Below, in pieces: positions 2,289-31,745 of a stretch of DNA of 64,000 nucleotides (its first letter is position 1; the number at the start of each line of letters is the position of its first letter). Source of the stretch: Candidatus Parcubacteria bacterium (GTDB taxonomy: Bacteria > Patescibacteriota > Saccharimonadia > UBA4664 > JBIOIQ01); the NCBI GenBank assembly GCA_963718875.1, contig OY970378.1, positions 1,011,691 to 1,075,690 of the forward strand, written 5' to 3'. The notes under the pieces were generated by a model, which searched no databases, had not been told where the DNA came from, and worked only from the letters and a program-made list of their open reading frames with translations. The translations under genes were made by a program, and so were the position numbers.

Positions 2289-3011
2289 TTAGCGGTACTC
2301 GGGGTTTTCAAAATCAAACCTGGCGCCGTCATCCCAACCTTTGCGCTGATTTCCGTAGGCCGGAATGCCGCCCGCCCGCTTGATCATATCGGCCAAGTGC
2401 ATCAGGTTCCATGTCATGAAAGTAGTGTTGCGGTTGGTGAAATCGTTTTCTGGCCCGCCTGATCCAGAGTCAAGGTATGAAGGTCCTGGACCAGCCTCCC
2501 CTACCCAGCCTGCGTCAGCTTGAGGAGGGATGGTATAGCCGAGGTGTTGTAAGCTGTACAGGGTATTCATGGTACAGTGCTTTATGCCGTCCTCGTTTCC
2601 TGTAATGAGGCTTCCTCCGACTTTACCATAAAAGGCGTATTGGCCGGCTTCATTTAAAATGCTACTGCAGGCATAAAGGCGTTCGATGACGCGCTTCATT
2701 ACCGAGCTGTTATCGCCCAACCAAATCGGCCCGCATAACACTAGTATATCGGCAGTCATAACTTTTTTATAAATATGCGGCCATTCATCTGTATCCCAGC
2801 CGTGCTCGCGCATATCAGGCCACACACCCGTGGCTATATCGTGGTCAATCGCGCGAATCAACTCTGTCTGTACACCGTGTTTATCCATAATGTCACGGCT
2901 GATCTTGATTAACCCTTCGGTATTACTGGCTTCGGGTGATTTTTTTAGGGTGGCATTTATGTATAAGGCTTTTAGATTAGAAAAGTCCCATTTATTTATT
3001 TGCTCAGCCAT
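2289..3011 (-). CDS. flavodoxin-like fold NAD(P)H-dependent FMN reductase family protein
   Basis: 240-aa ORF; ADILVLCGPIWLGDNSSVMKRVIERL resembles the FMN-reductase/flavodoxin-like core. Confidence 0.5.
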   Translation of the reverse strand: MAEQINKWDFSNLKALYINATLKKSPEASNTEGLIKISRDIMDKHGVQTELIRAIDHDIATGVWPDMREHGWDTDEWPHIYKKVMTADILVLCGPIWLGDNSSVMKRVIERLYACSSILNEAGQYAFYGKVGGSLITGNEDGIKHCTMNTLYSLQHLGYTIPPQADAGWVGEAGPGPSYLDSGSGGPENDFTNRNTTFMTWNLMHLADMIKRAGGIPAYGNQRKGWDDGARFDFENPEYR

Positions 3012-3044
3012 ATCCAGCTCCTTTTACTTATCTTATTATACGCC

Positions 3045-3095
3045 AGCAAAAAGAAAAGCCGCCGTCCGCTCTCGACCTTGCGGGTCGGGTGCGAA
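3045..3095 (-). terminator. Rho-independent terminator of the GC-rich membrane-protein gene
   Basis: minus-strand hairpin gccgccgt...acggcggc followed by UUUUCUUUUUG. Confidence 0.5.
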
Positions 3096-3112
3096 CGGCG
3101 GCGGGTACGCGA

Positions 3113-3622
3113 CTAGCGGTTCCGGTTTGCCGCGTGAACGATCTGAGCGGCGATGCCCACCCAGACCAAGACGACCAACACGGTGGCGAGCATGGCTGTT
3201 CCTCGCCTCACAGTGCCTCCGTCATAGAAGGGGGTCTCCTGGAAGCCGACGCCGTAGTTGGAAGCGTTGGCTACTGCCGTTCTTCCGGTGCTGGCCTGTT
3301 CCCAGACGGTGACGACCGGACGCTCCCCCGAGGGGATGTCCTTGATCAACATGTTGACGGTCAAGGCTTGCGGCTTGGTCGAGAGCCTTCCGACGTAGGA
3401 AACGGCGACCTTCTGGTAAGGCCCGTAGTAGCTGGAGTGCACCTGGTCGTCGACGCCTGCGACAGATCCCTGGATCGGGTCACCCCACAGACTGATCGAG
3501 TGGTCGCGTCCGTGCTCGCCGGCGATGTTGCCGATGGTGACGAGCGTGGTGATGATCAGAACGGTTGAGACGATTCCGGCCACAACCCACCCTATGATCC
3601 TCAATCCGTTATTGGTACGCAC
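3113..3622 (-). CDS. hypothetical membrane protein (N- and C-terminal TM helices) in a GC-rich islet
   Basis: 169-aa ORF; GTG start with GGAGG SD 7 nt upstream; own terminator; local GC clearly above the flanks. Confidence 0.5.
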   Translation of the reverse strand: MRTNNGLRIIGWVVAGIVSTVLIITTLVTIGNIAGEHGRDHSISLWGDPIQGSVAGVDDQVHSSYYGPYQKVAVSYVGRLSTKPQALTVNMLIKDIPSGERPVVTVWEQASTGRTAVANASNYGVGFQETPFYDGGTVRRGTAMLATVLVVLVWVGIAAQIVHAANRNR

Positions 3623-4850: not shown

Positions 4851-5102
4851 AGTAAACCGTGCCACTCGCTTACCCTCCCACTCAACTTCTTCTATCCACT
4901 CGTCTACTGGACGGATAAACAACAACTTGTCGCCGTACTCAGCTCTATAAATAACGCAAACTGCATCAGTGCTTTCTTGAATGGCCAAGTTTAAGACGGT
5001 ATAAATCTGATTTTTATAATGATTATACTGTGCACCAACCTCGACTTGGTCGGCGGCTTGGGTGAGCATTTGTGATAATTCGATTTGCGATTTATGAGAC
5101 AT
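4830..5102 (-). CDS. DUF1653 domain protein
   Basis: 90 aa from ATG 5100-5102 (minus) with AAGGA SD; YKNQIYTVLNLA...VCVIYRAEYGDKLLFIRP is the DUF1653 pattern. Confidence 0.6.
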   Translation of the reverse strand: MSHKSQIELSQMLTQAADQVEVGAQYNHYKNQIYTVLNLAIQESTDAVCVIYRAEYGDKLLFIRPVDEWIEEVEWEGKRVARFTRRGTQK

Positions 5103-5205
5103 GAACGAGTTCCTTGTAATCAACAAATGACAAGTAACAATTTACAAACAATTTCAAAAAGTTAAGTTTAAAATTCCAAATCACTACCCCACACATAGAA
5201 CTACC

Positions 5206-5237
5206 GGTGACAGACTCTCCAATGAGAGTCTGTCACC
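5206..5237 (-). terminator. perfect 14-bp stem / 5-nt loop hairpin without U tract downstream of the HicB-like gene (possible U-less intrinsic terminator)
   Basis: ggtgacagactctc-caatg-gagagtctgtcacc; lies just 3' of the minus-strand ORF ending at 5255. Confidence 0.3.
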
Positions 5238-5254
5238 GCCGTGCAAGGGGTCAA

Positions 5255-5557
5255 CTAGTCGGCCGATCCGTCGTAGTTACCGGTCGATTCATCTTCTTCC
5301 TCTGTAACAGTGCGTCCGAGACGCCGCGCCAAGTCAGGCGAAATGGCGGTGCGTTGAACTTCACGGGCGCGGTTATCCCCACAGAACAACATACGCCCGA
5401 AGCTGGAGTAGAACAGCCCGCACAGTACGTGACCGGTAGCGTGGTCCAACCGGTCGGAGAGTTCGCTTACCCAGATTGCCCAGTCTGGCACTTCGGACTC
5501 TACAAGCCAGTGGGTATCTGACGAGTGATGGTATTCGACGCGATACTGAGTTGCCAT
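5255..5557 (-). CDS. HicB-like antitoxin-fold protein with C-terminal RHH-like segment (GC-rich islet)
   Basis: 100 aa; YRVEYHHSSDTHWLVESEVPDW resembles the HicB/UPF0150 N-terminal fold; TAISPDLARRLGRTV is RHH-like; SD GAGAGG; a 6-codon SD-preceded mini-ORF (MMTVIR) lies immediately upstream. Confidence 0.35.
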   Translation of the reverse strand: MATQYRVEYHHSSDTHWLVESEVPDWAIWVSELSDRLDHATGHVLCGLFYSSFGRMLFCGDNRAREVQRTAISPDLARRLGRTVTEEEDESTGNYDGSAD

Positions 5558-5830
5558 GATTGCCTCTCTAACGCGCCCTCACAGTGAGGGCTAGCGTATG
5601 ACGGTCATCATGGTTGCCTCCTTTGCAAGTTGTAGGGTACAGCTGACGGCCTAAGCGTAACAAGGACTACCGATTAACGCAAACTTTTCAGCGCGCATTC
5701 TTGATCAGGTGTAATCGCCACCAACAGGTGCACTTCTTGCTAGACTTGAGCTAATTTAGCATAAATGTTACGATGGGTCGGTTCTTTAGTATGAAACAGT
5801 AGTCACTAAATCCGCAAACGTCCCGTTTGC

Positions 5831-5888
5831 GACCCCATCGTCTAGCGGTTAGGACATCCCGGCATTAGCCGGGACAACCGGGGTTCGA
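5831..5888 (+). pseudogene. truncated tRNA-Glu-like gene fragment (5' acceptor strand, D arm, altered anticodon arm, 5' T stem; no 3' end)
   Basis: 26 nt plus 14 nt identical to the intact tRNA-Glu at 6149; anticodon arm replaced (TCCCGGCATTAGCCGGGA); no complementary 3' acceptor strand downstream. Confidence 0.5.
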
Positions 5889-5901
5889 GGTTACGAAGTC
5901 T

Positions 5902-6141
5902 ATGATCTATACAGCATATATTCTTTTGACAAGCACGGGGAGCTTTTATATCGGTCAGACCAATGATATGACCGATCGCTTAGTGAGGCACGCTCGAGGG
6001 GAATGCAGTTTCACAAAATCTAGGCTGCCTGTTACTCTTGTGTATAAGGAAGAATTTACTTCTAGATCTCAGGCTGTAACGCGAGAAAGACAACTCAAAT
6101 CTTGGAAAAGCACGCAAAGGCTTAAGGCTCTTATAAATTAG
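5902..6141 (+). CDS. GIY-YIG nuclease family protein (UPF0213 / YhbQ-like, 79 aa)
   Basis: YILLTSTGSFYIGQTNDMTDRLVRH...RERQLKSWKS has the GIY-YIG core; sits between the tRNA fragment and the intact tRNA-Glu. Confidence 0.7.
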   Translation: MIYTAYILLTSTGSFYIGQTNDMTDRLVRHARGECSFTKSRLPVTLVYKEEFTSRSQAVTRERQLKSWKSTQRLKALIN

Positions 6142-6148
6142 ATGGCAT

Positions 6149-6223
6149 GACCCCATCGTCTAGCGGTTAGGACACCAGGTTTTCATCCTGGCAACCGGGG
6201 TTCGATTCCCCGTGGGGTCACCA
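6149..6223 (+). tRNA. tRNA-Glu (anticodon TTC)
   Basis: 75-nt cloverleaf folded by hand; acceptor GACCCCA/TGGGGTC; anticodon loop TTTTCAT; T arm CGGGGTTCGATTCCCCG; encoded CCA. Confidence 0.9.
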
Positions 6224-6225
6224 AT

Positions 6226-6259
6226 AAAAATACCCGAGCTTGTCTCGGGTATTTTTATT
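6226..6259 (+). terminator. Rho-independent terminator after tRNA-Glu (bidirectional-looking)
   Basis: aaaaatacccgag-cttgt-ctcgggtattttt: perfect stem flanked by an A run and a T run. Confidence 0.6.
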
Positions 6260-6422
6260 GGTGAGTGCCGCAGGCACAGCGGACCTCGGTTGAGAGTGAG
6301 CGAAAGCTAACGAGGGGTTTGATAACGAGGAAAGCGCACACAAGTTTACTTGGGGCACATGCCAATGTTATACAAAAATTCCCCGTCGGGTCACTATTCG
6401 TTATCCCTTTTCTAAGCCATGC

Positions 6423-7367
6423 TTAAAGTAGTGGTGCGAGTTCCTGATTGCGCCTAAATAGCTCCTGCAAGTCGCCTAATCGTTCGTCAGGGTTAGTACA
6501 TAGCTCAGCTAAGGTATCTAGTAGCTCCCAATCCTTTTCACTCAACTCATCGTCCCTTGCCGACACAAGTCTCCAAGCGTCCCATTTTTCTCCGAACTCA
6601 AGTCGCACAAGATATGGTACAGCCTCAACTTTGTTCAATGACGCAAAGTCTCTCAGCAACTGACCTCGCACGAACCAAGCACCATACAGTGATTTCAAAC
6701 CGAACTCTTTTGGGTCTGCGCCAATACCGAACCTACTAGAACTTACCTCATCGTCACGCATCATATTCCAGGCAATACCAGCGTTTATAAAATGCTTATT
6801 ACTTACATTCAACGGGTCAAGCGATAGGAGCATTTGCTTGTACTCTGGCTCAATATCTGTCTCAGTATTAGCGTAGTTTTGGAGAACACTTTGCTGGAAC
6901 GGGTCAATCTGAGGGTCAATAGCTATCCAGGTATTACCATTCCAATACTCACAGACCCAATGGTCTTCATATAAGCCTGGTTTTGCAAGATACGTAGCAA
7001 ATCCGCACCTCGCTCGTGCTGGTATGCCTTTTGCCCTAAATAATGCCGTAGCCAGCACCGTAAACTCTCTGCAACAGGCAACCACTCGCTCTTCAGGGCT
7101 GCGTGGTAAAGCTAGCGATATACTGACTTCCCGCAGTTTTGCGGCTTGAGTAATAATTTCACTAGCACTAGGAGTACACTTAGTTCTTTTATGCTCTGGT
7201 TTCAAATGTATGCCGTAGCGCTCAATCCACATATCGTGCACTATTAAGCCTTGAGCAACTTGGAATATGACACGAGGGTCTGCAGAAAGCCAAGTAGTAA
7301 AATCCTTGAAATCGGACAGGTCAGTTAGGCTATCAGGCAGGGCATAATATTCTTGTGATAATTGCAT
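6423..7367 (-). CDS. transglutaminase-like cysteine peptidase superfamily protein
   Basis: 314 aa; CREFTVLATALFRAKGIPARARCGF ... DHWVCEYW match the transglutaminase-like Cys/His/Asp core. Confidence 0.6.
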   Translation of the reverse strand: MQLSQEYYALPDSLTDLSDFKDFTTWLSADPRVIFQVAQGLIVHDMWIERYGIHLKPEHKRTKCTPSASEIITQAAKLREVSISLALPRSPEERVVACCREFTVLATALFRAKGIPARARCGFATYLAKPGLYEDHWVCEYWNGNTWIAIDPQIDPFQQSVLQNYANTETDIEPEYKQMLLSLDPLNVSNKHFINAGIAWNMMRDDEVSSSRFGIGADPKEFGLKSLYGAWFVRGQLLRDFASLNKVEAVPYLVRLEFGEKWDAWRLVSARDDELSEKDWELLDTLAELCTNPDERLGDLQELFRRNQELAPLL

Positions 7368-7493: not shown

Positions 7494-7528
7494 GCACACA
7501 CTCAATCCCCAGACACCAGGAGAGCACC

Positions 7529-8122
7529 ATGCACAGCTTCATCGACTTGCATTGCGGATCTCGGCTATTCGTCGAGGTGGAACTTGACGAATCCATCCGA
7601 ACGGCCCAGGCTCGTGAACGCATCGAGATCATCTTGCTCGATCGGCAAATCGGCCGTCTTTTCCCTACCCTGAAGGGGTTCATGTACTACCCGCCCGACG
7701 AGCGGTGGAATGTGACCAGAATCGTGGAGCGCCTGCACAACCTCCTGAAGGAGCTGTTCGGGGACGACTACACGGTTTCCTACTGCAAGGACCGCGAGAG
7801 CGACGACATCATCATGCGCGAAGCTGATGGGTCCGAGCACGTCGTTGAGCCCAGCCGGCCACTAGGTCGCTTCGGCGCGACCAGGAGGCTTGTTATGCCG
7901 GCTAGTATCGAAGAGTACTTGGACCGTATTGCCAGAGAAGCAGCCGATTACTTCGACCGAGGTGATAGAGGAGCGGCTATCAGCTGCGTTCTGTCTCTGC
8001 TGCAAAGTCATCCCGACACTCAATCCATCGGGCGCACTTCTTCAACTTTGCCTCTCCTATTGGCGGGATGGGAAGGAGGTAGAGACAGGTTCATCGAAAC
8101 GATTACCGGGTTCCAGCCTTGA
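7529..8122 (+). CDS. hypothetical protein (GC-rich islet)
   Basis: 197-aa ORF; SD AGGAGAG 4 nt before ATG; local GC much higher than the flanks; possible terminator-like hairpin near 8150-8185. Confidence 0.45.
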   Translation: MHSFIDLHCGSRLFVEVELDESIRTAQARERIEIILLDRQIGRLFPTLKGFMYYPPDERWNVTRIVERLHNLLKELFGDDYTVSYCKDRESDDIIMREADGSEHVVEPSRPLGRFGATRRLVMPASIEEYLDRIAREAADYFDRGDRGAAISCVLSLLQSHPDTQSIGRTSSTLPLLLAGWEGGRDRFIETITGFQP

Positions 8123-29255: not shown

Positions 29256-29308
29256 TGGAGGGCCGTCCGTGACTCCCCGGCTAGTGGGCCTGGGTAAACT
29301 TCTCGTCT
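29256..29308. repeat. 14-nt duplication of the tRNA-Lys 3' end (TGGAGGGCCGTCCG) fused to conserved motif copy 1 (TGACTCCCCGGCTAGTGGGCCTGGGTAAACTTCTCGTC)
   Basis: direct repeat of the tRNA 3' end about 90 bp from the tRNA; motif also at 37451-37487 and, diverged, at 63892-63927. Confidence 0.55.
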
Positions 29309-29358
29309 CGATGGACCCTTTCCAGTGAAAAAGCCCCACTTTCGTGAGGCGTTTTCAC

Positions 29359-29434
29359 TGGAGGGCCGTCCGGGACTTGAACCCGGAACCAATTGCTTAA
29401 GAGGCAACTGCTCTGCCGATTGAGCTAACGGCCC
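29359..29434 (-). tRNA. tRNA-Lys (anticodon CTT)
   Basis: 76-nt cloverleaf folded by hand: GGGCCGTTAGCTCAATCGGCAGAGCAGTTGCCTCTTAAGCAATTGGTTCCGGGTTCAAGTCCCGGACGGCCCTCCA. Confidence 0.9.
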
Positions 29435-29536
29435 TAGTCGTTTACAAAAACTTAACTTTCTGTCATTTATAATCTTCCTGATATAGTCTTTTCTCTTCCA
29501 AGACTTTATATGCTTTTCTGCCAACCTGGCAATAGC

Positions 29537-31371: not shown

Positions 31372-31403
31372 CTGTCATCCCTGCGTAGGCGGGGATCCAG
31401 GCC
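31372..31403. repeat. repeat module 1 (TGTCATCCC-TGCGTAGGCG-GGGATCCAGG) abutting the 3' end of the GIY-YIG gene
   Basis: same module as at 4745, 32750, 45167 and 34364; near-inverted copy of the module at 31700-31745. Confidence 0.6.
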
Positions 31404-31404
31404 A

Positions 31405-31689
31405 TTAGAAATCCTCTGCTAAATCTTTCCAGTTCGGGTTACTCTCTTCAATTAATCGCAGCTTCCAAGCTCTCTTCCAATGCTTAATTTGTTTTTCGCG
31501 AAGCAATGCGGAGTTCACGTCATTGGTTTGTTCAAAATAAACCAGCATATGAACACTATTTTCCTTGGTGAACCCATCTATGAGATTGTTTTTATGCTGG
31601 TGCGCCCTAGTTTGCAGATTATTCGTCATGCCAACATAGAGAGTCCCATTGCGCTGACTAGCCATTATATAGACGTAATAAGTTTTCAT
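31405..31689 (-). CDS. GIY-YIG nuclease family protein (UPF0213/YhbQ-like, 94 aa)
   Basis: YVYIMASQRNGTLYVGMTNNLQTRAHQH...REKQIKHWKR GIY-YIG core; flanked on both sides by the repeat modules. Confidence 0.7.
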   Translation of the reverse strand: MKTYYVYIMASQRNGTLYVGMTNNLQTRAHQHKNNLIDGFTKENSVHMLVYFEQTNDVNSALLREKQIKHWKRAWKLRLIEESNPNWKDLAEDF

Positions 31690-31699
31690 TTGTTTATAT

Positions 31700-31745
31700 T
31701 ATACTTTTTTCTTTTCTGGGTCCCCGCCTTCGCAGGGACGACAAC
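31700..31745. repeat. repeat module 2 (TTTTTCTTTTCTGGGTCCCC-GCCTTCGCA-GGGAC) abutting the 5' end of the GIY-YIG gene
   Basis: reverse complement GTCCCTGCGAAGGCGGGGAC matches module 1 ATCCCTGCGTAGGCGGGGATC (roughly 18/20). Confidence 0.6.

Follow-up and report, generated by a model that had tools for sequence, protein, structure and literature searches.

A tRNA-Glu gene split by a small cassette carrying a minimal GIY-YIG nuclease gene and a replacement tRNA: a candidate homing-type element at bacterial tRNA genes

A tRNA-Glu gene of a patescibacterial genome is split in two by a small insert that carries a GIY-YIG nuclease gene and a complete tRNA-Glu of its own. The locus lies in a stretch of 64,000 nucleotides (the window) of contig OY970378.1, assembly GCA_963718875.1, from a Candidatus Parcubacteria bacterium assigned to the Saccharimonadia. 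A first-pass annotation had described there a partial 5′ copy of tRNA-Glu, a GIY-YIG open reading frame (ORF) and an intact tRNA-Glu, and had read them as the scar of an element that regenerated a functional tRNA gene, with a homing-type GIY-YIG insertion as a secondary suggestion. Our data indicate that a former tRNA-Glu gene is interrupted in its T loop by a 489-bp insert (5889–6377). Comparison with 82 further loci shows the same kind of arrangement at other tRNA genes, with the GIY-YIG gene as its constant component, and makes the homing-type insertion, formerly the secondary suggestion, the best-supported reading.

The 5′ fragment at 5831–5888 repeats the intact tRNA-Glu in two blocks, as had been annotated: 5831–5856 equals 6149–6174 (26 of 26 nt; tRNA-Glu nt 1–26) and 5875–5888 equals 6192–6205 (14 of 14 nt; nt 44–57, CAACCGGGGTTCGA). 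Chance can be excluded, because the repeats are exact, of such length and 318 nt apart. The sole tRNA called at the locus is the one at 6149–6223 (Glu-TTC; ARAGORN, and Rfam at 64.7 bits over the full length), and neither ARAGORN nor Rfam calls a tRNA in the 5′ fragment, even at E up to 10, which indicates that the fragment is not a functional tRNA. The earlier observation that it lacks a 3′ acceptor strand is correct locally, but the missing part is present further downstream: 6378–6394 (ATTCCCCGTCGGGTCAC) matches tRNA positions 6205–6221 (nt 57–73) at 16 of 17 nt in a repeat search, and the 3′ half to which it belongs (6378–6397) completes a cloverleaf. The 5′ fragment ends on the A of TTCGA in the T loop and the 3′ fragment starts with the same A, an overlap of 1 nt. 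Joining 5831–5888 to 6379–6397 gives an acceptor stem with one mismatch, a D arm and a T arm; the anticodon arm alone is abnormal, with an “anticodon” loop of 6 nt. Since the two halves overlap by a single nucleotide and rebuild a cloverleaf, they represent a single former tRNA-Glu gene split at the T loop.

The insert consists of a 13-nt leader, the nuclease ORF, 7 nt, the complete tRNA-Glu, a hairpin with a 21-bp stem and a 113-nt spacer (Table 1), and the distances from the 79-aa ORF to the fragment and to the tRNA are thus those first annotated. AT-rich leaders of 7–10 nt stand at the equivalent place in the homologous loci L001 and L003. The hairpin downstream of the tRNA (21 nt, 100% complementary, 5-nt loop; −40.4 kcal/mol, z −8.8) is probably the terminator of the cassette, and the same design is found 3′ of the tRNA-Lys at 29359 and of the tRNA of the related contig L116. 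A complete tRNA-Glu and its probable terminator came with the insert, so that the cell is not left without a working tRNA. The spacer (6265–6377) showed no coding signal, no GIY-YIG remnant and, beyond chance level, no match in Rfam; remains of older tRNA copies, by now decayed, may lie in it. Rfam searches of 5100–6500 at E up to 10 found no RNA family besides tRNA above threshold, ribozyme cores included, and a promoter scan of the same region found no promoter consensus. A weak TTGAGC-N17-TACGAT at 5746–5774 was read by eye only. The locus is flanked by genes for a DUF1653 protein, a queuosine-salvage protein and a transglutaminase-like protein, and family scans of the insert and the neighbouring genes revealed no integrase or recombinase within or beside it. 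The original idea of an element that entered the tRNA gene, with a functional copy regenerated, stands in its core; the 489-bp cassette brings its own tRNA.

Table 1. Features of the split tRNA-Glu locus and of a decayed second cassette at tRNA-Lys (window coordinates)
Feature	Position	Strand	Remarks
Old outer tRNA-Glu, 5′ half	5831–5888	+	nt 1–26 (acceptor 5′ strand, D arm), signature hairpin, variable loop, T-stem 5′ strand, TTCGA
Signature hairpin TCCCGGC-ATTA-GCCGGGA	5857–5874	+	18 nt in place of the 17-nt anticodon arm
Leader; left edge of insert	5889–5901	+	13 nt from T-loop break to start codon; sequence inspection
Minimal GIY-YIG nuclease gene, Slx1-like / UPF0213 type	5902–6141	+	79 aa; Pfam, profile and fold matches
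Intact cassette-borne tRNA-Glu	6149–6223	+	anticodon TTC, CCA encoded; ARAGORN, Rfam
Perfect 21-bp-stem hairpin, probable terminator	6218–6264	+	starts within tRNA 3′ end (TCACCA...TGGTGA)
Spacer “X” between terminator and old 3′ half	6265–6377	+	113 nt; fold z-score −1.6
Old tRNA-Glu, 3′ half; right edge of insert	6378–6397	+	rest of T loop, T-stem 3′ strand, acceptor 3′ strand
GIY-YIG gene remnant, last 23 codons (ARLAEKHIKSWKRKDYIRKIIND)	29530–29462	−	E 1e-5 in a small search
Intact tRNA-Lys	29434–29359	−	followed by a hairpin whose stem takes in the tRNA 3′ end
tRNA-Lys 3′ fragment, 13–14 nt (GGACGGCCCTCCA)	29269–29256	−	about 90 nt downstream of tRNA-Lys

Synteny with relatives that have the same downstream neighbour but no nuclease gene bears on the place of the original tRNA gene. 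The transglutaminase-like gene (6423–7367, minus strand) has 80% DNA identity with its counterparts in two related contigs, L115 and L116; there, too, it is followed by tRNA-Glu, and the GIY-YIG ORF is absent. In L115 the intact tRNA ends 17 nt from the transglutaminase-like gene, and in the window the 3′ fragment lies 26 nt from it, next to its stop codon, the intact tRNA-Glu lying about 200 nt further away. The synteny thus favours the outer halves as the original tRNA-Glu gene, since the 3′ half sits about where the L115 tRNA ends. The syntenic tRNA is Glu-TTC in the window and Glu-CTC in both L115 (4837–4913) and L116 (2554–2628), and in L115 the acceptor stems of the old 5′ fragment and of the intact tRNA differ from each other. 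Both findings are consistent with a resident tRNA gene that gave way to one brought in by a cassette. Upstream of the locus, the genes are unrelated in the relatives that keep the downstream synteny. We also observed, on the minus strands of L115 (4914–5100) and L116 (2629–2929), 5′ tRNA-Glu fragments with a normal anticodon arm that are cut in the T stem. In place of the ORF, about 125 nt of non-coding spacer follow in both contigs, including a hairpin (TGCCAGTGGCA..GCAAGG) and a TATAAT box immediately ahead of the intact tRNA; neither a GIY-YIG remnant nor an Rfam match was found in these spacers. L116 has an additional 3′ tRNA fragment past its intact tRNA.

The search for homologous loci covered one genome per species and confirmed 359 stretches encoding a relative of the ORF. 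The best 80 of these, two further contigs and the window make up the locus set used here (83 loci, 90 ORFs), whose hosts include Saccharibacteria and other Patescibacteria, Zixibacteria, Acidobacteriota, Bacteroidota, Armatimonadota, Verrucomicrobiota and others. A tRNA lies within 60 nt of 65 of the 90 ORFs and within 150 nt of 71, in 70 of these 71 on the same strand. The GIY-YIG gene is the sole protein-coding gene constant across the 83 loci, and for this reason we regard it as the element itself and not as a passenger.

The layout of the loci varies with the host. In Acidobacteriota, Bacteroidota and others, an intact tRNA (Ala, Val or Asn) is followed after about 10 nt by the ORF and then by a partial copy of that tRNA; at loci with a tRNA upstream only, an exact downstream partial copy of at least 12 nt is present in 40 of 49 cases and one of at least 20 nt in 36, usually covering nt 44–76. 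Loci of Patescibacteria and Zixibacteria, at Glu and Asp tRNAs, are laid out like the window: the partial 5′ copy comes first, then the ORF, then the intact tRNA. Outer tRNA halves enclosing both the ORF and an intact tRNA were found at L006, L046 and L082, where the break lies between anticodon nt 35 and 36. Pro-type loci have tRNA calls on either side of the ORF, the D arm of the downstream copy being replaced by CCCCGCCATYGGCGGGG. Displaced 5′ copies end at tRNA nt 50–58, in the T stem and T loop. Different lineages thus use Glu, Asp, Ala, Val, Asn and Pro tRNA genes. Judged from these sequence comparisons, the split-tRNA cassette design with its conserved hairpin recurs in many bacterial phyla.

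The hairpin in question replaces the anticodon arm of the displaced copy. In the window, 5857–5874 (TCCCGGCATTAGCCGGGA) forms a 7-bp hairpin (−16.3 kcal/mol, z −5.7) that is the single match to TCCCGR..YCGGGA in the 64 kb. The first-pass annotation was right that the anticodon arm of the fragment differs; the possibility it raised, that the arm derives from another tRNA gene, for example tRNA-Gln, was rejected, for the motif is in none of the window's four tRNAs and matches the recurrent family hairpin instead. At 52 of the 83 loci such a hairpin stands no more than 150 nt from the ORF, and in 78 of 105 instances its flanks equal nt 21–26 and 44–49 of the intact neighbouring tRNA, an exact replacement of the anticodon arm. 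The search pattern (TCCCGR-loop-YCGGGA) demanded the first five base pairs, and their fixity follows from it; among 55 distinct versions, the sixth pair is G-C in 26 and A-T in 22, the seventh C-G in 25 and T-A in 20. Most stems have 7–8 bp and most loops 2–4 nt, for a total of 16–18 nt, about the length of an anticodon arm.

A fixed base with compensatory inner pairs and a variable inner length argues for selection for a folded hairpin and not for a rigid double-stranded palindromic site. The hairpin appears to be under selection also because it is kept while the flanking tRNA segments stay identical to the intact copy. From these patterns we infer that it has been selected as a folded structure, be it RNA, single-stranded DNA or a cruciform. 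At the gathering threshold, only tRNA was found by Rfam in 20 loci, with no family for the hairpin, the spacers or the arrays described below. A fixed distance between hairpin and breakpoint was considered and rejected, as it varies from 7 to 16 nt among the loci read. Our best guess is that the hairpin would be the structure recognised by the nuclease, or that it would render the old copy uncuttable.

Some details of individual hairpins were also recorded. At tRNA-Ala loci of Acidobacteriota (L011, L036, L042, L047, L054, L058, L064) the ORF stop codon falls inside the hairpin loop (tcccggTAAcaaccggga, tcccggTGAccaccggga), and the D-stem remnant and left arm of the hairpin encode the last ORF codons. 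At tRNA-Pro loci (L025, L028, L053, L057, L073) the acceptor stem (5′ CGGGATG ... CATCCCGA 3′) has both half-sites, TCCCGA and CGGGA, and the Pro-CGG anticodon loop reads TTCGGGA; these half-sites may be a coincidence or a clue to the origin of the hairpin.

Units of this kind are found in tandem, amplified, lost and decayed. Two ORF-plus-fragment units stand in tandem at L008, L018, L043, L047 and L073. In L012 (1650–2416) there are 10.4 copies of a 74-nt unit at 99% identity, composed of tRNA-Val nt 1–26, the hairpin, nt 44–50 and 23 nt of native upstream flank, and the array is followed by the intact tRNA, the ORF and a 3′ partial copy. Arrays of 5′ halves also occur in L005, L009, L013, L014, L017, L033, L051 and L067, and arrays of 3′ halves in L060 and L071, with periods of 63–95 nt and identities of 94–100%. 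The junction AGGTCAG|flank is common to five Acidobacteriaceae genomes, the arrays being homogeneous inside each genome. The array present in L012 is absent in L015, with flanks 90% identical, and L047 has two units vs one in L042 and L056 (flanks of the compared genomes 90–92% identical). In metagenomes, none of 32 loci with a closely similar tRNA-Glu 3′ part, retrieved with a degenerate 3′ pattern, has the ORF; the exact 75-nt tRNA-Glu gave no match there. Presence/absence polymorphism at homologous sites is thus seen in the 32 tRNA-Glu loci, in L115 and L116, and in the L047 and L012 comparisons.

The same genome has a decayed second cassette at tRNA-Lys (window 29256–29530, minus strand), in which a remnant of a GIY-YIG gene, an intact tRNA and a 3′ tRNA fragment follow one another (Table 1). 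As a separate observation, ORF-less 5′ tRNA-Glu fragments lie upstream of tRNA-Glu in L093, L103 and L107; they are broken by one to three GC-rich hairpins (e.g. CCCCGCCAAAGGCGGGG, CCTGCCGGCAGGCAGG) in the D loop and the anticodon loop, and in L107 the duplication takes in 5 nt of native upstream flank.

The product of the ORF matches PF01541 (GIY-YIG) with an E value of 4.7e-12 (46.5 bits vs a cut-off of 22.6), in agreement with its annotation. In an alignment of 28 sequences, Y6 (..AYIL), Y16-I17-G18, R26, H30 and E62 are invariant or nearly so, so that the GIY and YIG motifs, the conserved Arg and the catalytic Glu are all present. A profile of the 28 homologues finds the UPF0213 proteins BH0048 (1zg2, 2.8e-18) and EF2693 (1ywl) as best matches in the Protein Data Bank (PDB), and weakly matches Slx1, I-TevI (2.3e-3) and UvrC (6e-3). 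The AF2 model (pLDDT 95.2) is a complete GIY-YIG fold, a three-stranded sheet flanked by helices in the order E-E-H-E-H-H, and its nearest structures by Foldseek are 1zg2 and 1ywl, followed by the Slx1 nuclease domain 6seh (TMq 0.69, rmsd 2.3 Å). The protein stops at residue 79, right after the last core helix, with no C-terminal Asn segment and no auxiliary domain, as in the Slx1-like proteins that Dunin-Horkawicz et al. 2006 (PMC1564403) described as minimal and stand-alone. By sequence and predicted fold, the ORF belongs to this minimal Slx1-like / UPF0213 branch of the GIY-YIG nucleases. Pfam and the model show no DNA-binding domain in the 79 aa, which amount to the catalytic domain alone. 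The intron-endonuclease model TIGR01453 scores 14.6 bits, under its cut-off of 56, and PHROG 5123 matches residues 1–32 only (E 0.008).

No exact match to the protein is on record, its nearest homologues being 40–65% identical. The family is large: clustering at 50% identity gives 32,588 matching clusters with an E cut-off of 1e-3 and 11,217 with one of 1e-10, across bacterial phyla. Orthologue pairs give dN/dS values of 0.06–0.28, with dS up to about 1. In a neighbour-joining tree the ORFs cluster by tRNA type and host phylum, the window ORF grouping with L001 and L003 (Saccharibacteria, tRNA-Glu). Viral relatives are scarce, with 11 weak matches in GenBank phages and 3 in IMG/VR, none of them adjoining a tRNA, and the defence-system models of PADLOC gave marginal partial matches only. 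N- or C-terminal extensions of 20–60 aa are common in family entries (P0004, P0007, P0011 and P0012 among them) and by eye resemble translated tRNA, e.g. ...MPPSSSPV = ATGCCCCCATCGTCTAGCCCGGT; we take them to be gene-calling artefacts from abutting tRNA genes.

The anatomy of the locus, the many tRNA genes at which it is found again, its hairpin and arrays, the differences between genomes and the protein fold lead us to think it probable, with moderate confidence, that the cassette is a selfish, homing-type element whose Slx1-like nuclease breaks tRNA genes and which spreads by recombination through tRNA-derived arms. The protein would cut tRNA-gene DNA, the spread would be by recombinational homing, and the hairpin would have a role in the process. 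In the window, the ancestral tRNA-Glu adjoining the transglutaminase-like gene would have been broken in the T-psi-C loop. The nuclease would break DNA in or beside a tRNA gene, as may be reflected in the fragment ends clustered in the T stem and T loop, and host homologous recombination would mend the break from a cassette-bearing copy, with the tRNA-derived flanks serving as portable homology arms. Repair would thereby copy the cassette, and out-of-register repair would generate tandem units and arrays. The cassette tRNA-Glu and its own terminator would keep the host supplied with a working tRNA, and the hairpin replacing the anticodon arm of the displaced copy would travel with the element.

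Several observations weigh against such a homing cycle. The 79-aa protein is a catalytic domain only, with no DNA-binding domain, unlike I-TevI and SegB, to give site specificity. The intact tRNA of the cassette retains the presumed target, and there is no obvious bar to self-cutting. Strong purifying selection at orthologous loci (dN/dS 0.06–0.28) and ORF clades that follow tRNA type and host phylum look like long vertical persistence and not like the invasion-and-decay cycle of homing. Partial copies equal the local tRNA exactly, which suits local duplication or gene conversion no less than an origin in another genome. Homology arms of 26 + 14 nt and 17–20 nt are very short. Relatives are almost absent from viral collections, so that no vehicle for transfer between cells is identified, and cleavage by this subfamily is a prediction from sequence and model.

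Some of these points lead to a different view, which we consider unlikely: that the nuclease is domesticated or otherwise useful to the host, tuning tRNA gene copy number by break-induced amplification and gene conversion, or processing or culling RNA from a transcript shared with the tRNA. On this view the enzyme would produce the split gene, the partial copies and the arrays as side effects and not as a means of spread. The dN/dS of 0.06–0.28 between orthologous loci with near-saturated dS, the clades tracking tRNA type and phylum, and the persistence of same-junction arrays in five related Acidobacteriaceae genomes are consistent with it. The ORF is co-oriented with the tRNA at gaps of about 5–60 nt, which suggests co-transcription, and the absent DNA-binding domain also keeps a role of this sort open. 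In phage T6, SegB-driven tRNA amplification is adaptive (PMC13096335), and prokaryotic Slx1-like domains fused to tRNA methyltransferases have suggested a role in RNA metabolism (PMC1564403). A useful function is hard to reconcile with the patchy distribution (0 of 32 tRNA-Glu loci; syntenic L115 and L116 without the ORF) and with the decayed copy at tRNA-Lys in the same genome; in addition, the amplified units are mostly non-functional tRNA fragments and not whole tRNAs, and with lineages at Glu, Asp, Ala, Val, Asn and Pro no single tRNA-specific function fits.

It is improbable that the system acts at the level of RNA, with hairpin-bearing tRNA-like transcripts as a scaffold, guide or decoy to whose hairpin base the nuclease would bind, or with the hairpin marking a processing site at which the ORF mRNA is freed from the tRNA precursor. 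Compensatory changes do maintain the hairpin, and its variable length excludes a rigid palindromic site in double-stranded DNA; nevertheless, the same covariation is equally expected of a single-stranded DNA hairpin or a cruciform. The hairpin keeps the length of the anticodon arm (16–18 nt) and its exact position in the tRNA frame, it persists while its flanks stay identical to the intact tRNA, which suggests selection on the hairpin, and, upstream of the tRNA, as many as 10 identical units are arrayed in the direction of transcription. On the other hand, the fragments do not have a complete tRNA fold, no spacer-like variable segment is seen in the short, variable loops of the hairpins, no Rfam family matches, and no GIY-YIG enzyme is known to be guided by RNA.

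The scar of an integrase-mediated island or prophage in tRNA-Glu, with the GC-richer patch at 5200–5830 as its remnant and the GIY-YIG gene as a passenger, is very improbable and largely refuted. Transfer RNA genes are common integration sites at which partial copies are left (PMC9897764), and the region upstream of the fragment is GC-richer, with a gene content not conserved in relatives. Yet no integrase or recombinase lies in or beside the locus, the 58-nt 5′ half and 20-nt 3′ half, 489 bp apart, are not an att-type direct repeat, the ORF-plus-tRNA architecture recurs across the 83 loci with unrelated neighbours, and comparable GC-rich patches exist elsewhere in the window. Finally, an ancient, stable tandem tRNA pair with one copy decaying and an unrelated gene between, an arrangement that the order fragment, ORF, tRNA-Glu in the Saccharibacteria relative L003 might recall, is refuted, because the old gene is split around the insert and the arrangement is found again at tRNA genes of different types. 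The intervening gene is in every case a member of this one nuclease family, at six or more tRNA types, and relatives vary in copy number and in presence of the gene; the fragment bears the element-specific hairpin, unlike random decay, and the 3′ half past the intact tRNA indicates insertion and not tandem duplication. An assembly artefact has just as negligible a likelihood, the transglutaminase-like neighbour being on record at 100% identity in a 1.19-Mb contig.

A bolder proposal concerns the substrate. As the fold is near that of Slx1, a nuclease of branched DNA, a structure-specific cut at a hairpin or cruciform is attractive as an idea, and it is conceivable, if rather doubtful, that the TCCCG...CGGGA hairpin, extruded as a cruciform or in single-stranded DNA at the anticodon-arm site, is the actual substrate or handle of the nuclease in an unrecognised mobile or recombinogenic system. 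If so, a nuclease consisting of a catalytic domain only would draw its specificity from a DNA structure embedded in the frame of a tRNA gene, and the system would put copies of its own in place of tRNA genes and assemble hairpin-bearing tRNA halves into arrays, which may have a function too.

With regard to known systems, the nearest characterised analogue of the favoured homing-type cassette appears to be SegB of phage T4, a free-standing GIY-YIG homing endonuclease encoded in a tRNA cluster, which recognises GGTTCRANTCC (the T-psi-C stem-loop) and whose cuts fall inside tRNA genes (PMC2330249). Through SegB, tRNA genes nearby undergo co-conversion. SegB also drives a tandem amplification of tRNA plus segB that depends on the nuclease and on recombination (PMC13096335), an outcome that the tandem units and arrays of the bacterial loci resemble. 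Like segB in T4 and T6, the GIY-YIG gene described here has tRNA genes around or beside it, and the break in the old gene falls in the very loop that SegB recognises. SegB differs in being phage-encoded with a 27-bp site, whereas the present ORF is a bare 79-aa Slx1-like domain on a bacterial chromosome, and neither of these two SegB studies reports a split tRNA gene, a carried replacement tRNA or a signature hairpin (PMC2330249; PMC13096335). With a catalytic domain only and a TIGR01453 score below the cut-off, the ORF lacks two SegB-type features, the DNA-binding domain and family-level sequence similarity. The UPF0213 proteins BH0048 and EF2693 share the same minimal domain and are its best sequence and fold matches, but the 2006 survey of the superfamily mentions neither a link to tRNA genes nor partial copies of tRNAs nor a hairpin (PMC1564403).

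Other systems share one trait or another. Integrative elements that target tRNA genes also insert there, regenerate a functional gene and leave a partial copy; they have a tyrosine or serine integrase, measure 9–120 kb and leave one direct repeat of the tRNA 3′ part (PMC9897764), whereas the present insert has 489 bp, no integrase, a whole tRNA inside and the old gene in two complementary halves. A selfish nuclease gene likewise lies harmlessly in a conserved RNA gene in the case of group I introns that encode GIY-YIG homing endonucleases, those of bacterial tRNA genes among them (PMC3984707), and the insertions at L006, L046 and L082 lie in the anticodon loop, where such introns sit; however, Rfam finds no ribozyme here, and the insertion is harmless through a spare gene and not through splicing. 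In the “fractured genes” (PMC2677866), too, a host gene is broken in two with a free-standing homing endonuclease gene between the pieces, but there the solution is protein trans-splicing at split inteins, as against a replacement copy of an RNA gene here.

A further comparison is with small nuclease genes tied to multiplying hairpins. In REP/RAYT and IS200/IS605 systems, a small nuclease gene is associated with conserved GC-rich hairpins that multiply in the genome, and the enzymes, HUH Y1 transposases, perform strand transfer. No HUH (Y1) transposase is present at our locus, whose only ORF is the GIY-YIG gene; since a GIY-YIG hydrolase cannot do strand transfer, mobility here must rely on host recombination. 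The literature searched, which leaves out most subscription journals, yielded SegB and general work on homing but no description of minimal GIY-YIG genes in split bacterial tRNA genes, of the hairpin or of the arrays.

The proposed cassette has consequences beyond this locus. It would offer a possible role for UPF0213 / Slx1-like proteins, a large family with solved structures, and the conserved hairpin is a concrete candidate substrate for the purified protein. It would represent a third harmless way into an essential gene, by means of a whole spare gene, beside splicing (introns, inteins) and the regeneration of att sites (integrases). By implication, an element of this design can put the copy it carries in place of a bacterial tRNA gene, which affects the reading of tRNA gene phylogenies and synteny. 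The cassette would also account for pseudogenes of tRNAs, for arrays of tRNA fragments and for the spurious extensions at the N or C terminus of many database entries of these proteins.

Two other features of the window had been brought into connection with the locus. The GC-rich islet upstream proved moderately GC-richer (0.54–0.57 over 5250–5700 vs about 0.45), with comparable patches at 3000–3600 and 7500–8100, but the label HicB-like for its gene is unsupported: the 100-aa minus-strand ORF at 5255–5557 matches neither HicB nor any other family in Pfam, NCBIfam, PADLOC, PHROGs or PDB. The sole match of this ORF is a marginal one in the PDB, to the restriction endonuclease 3hqf (E 0.048), and a perfect 15-bp inverted repeat (5205–5219 / 5224–5238) lies just 3′ of it. 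The patch and its ORF have no demonstrable link to the cassette.

The second GIY-YIG gene of the window (31405–31689, minus strand, 94 aa, Pfam 2e-15) belongs to a separate, highly conserved subfamily, with 60–86% identity across many phyla, and adjoins murB again in a relative. It has inverted GC hairpins at its flanks (31380–31740; GTCCCTGCGAAGGCGGGGAC upstream and ATCCCCGCCTACGCAGGGAT downstream) and no tRNA pieces, and in its position between inverted hairpins it resembles a RAYT gene between REP sequences. A homologue from Zixibacteria (L117 1460–1860), 71% identical, shares its ends, which read TGTCAT-CCCGCGAAGGCGGG-ATCCAG ... CTGGAT-TCCCGA..TCGGGA-ATGACA.

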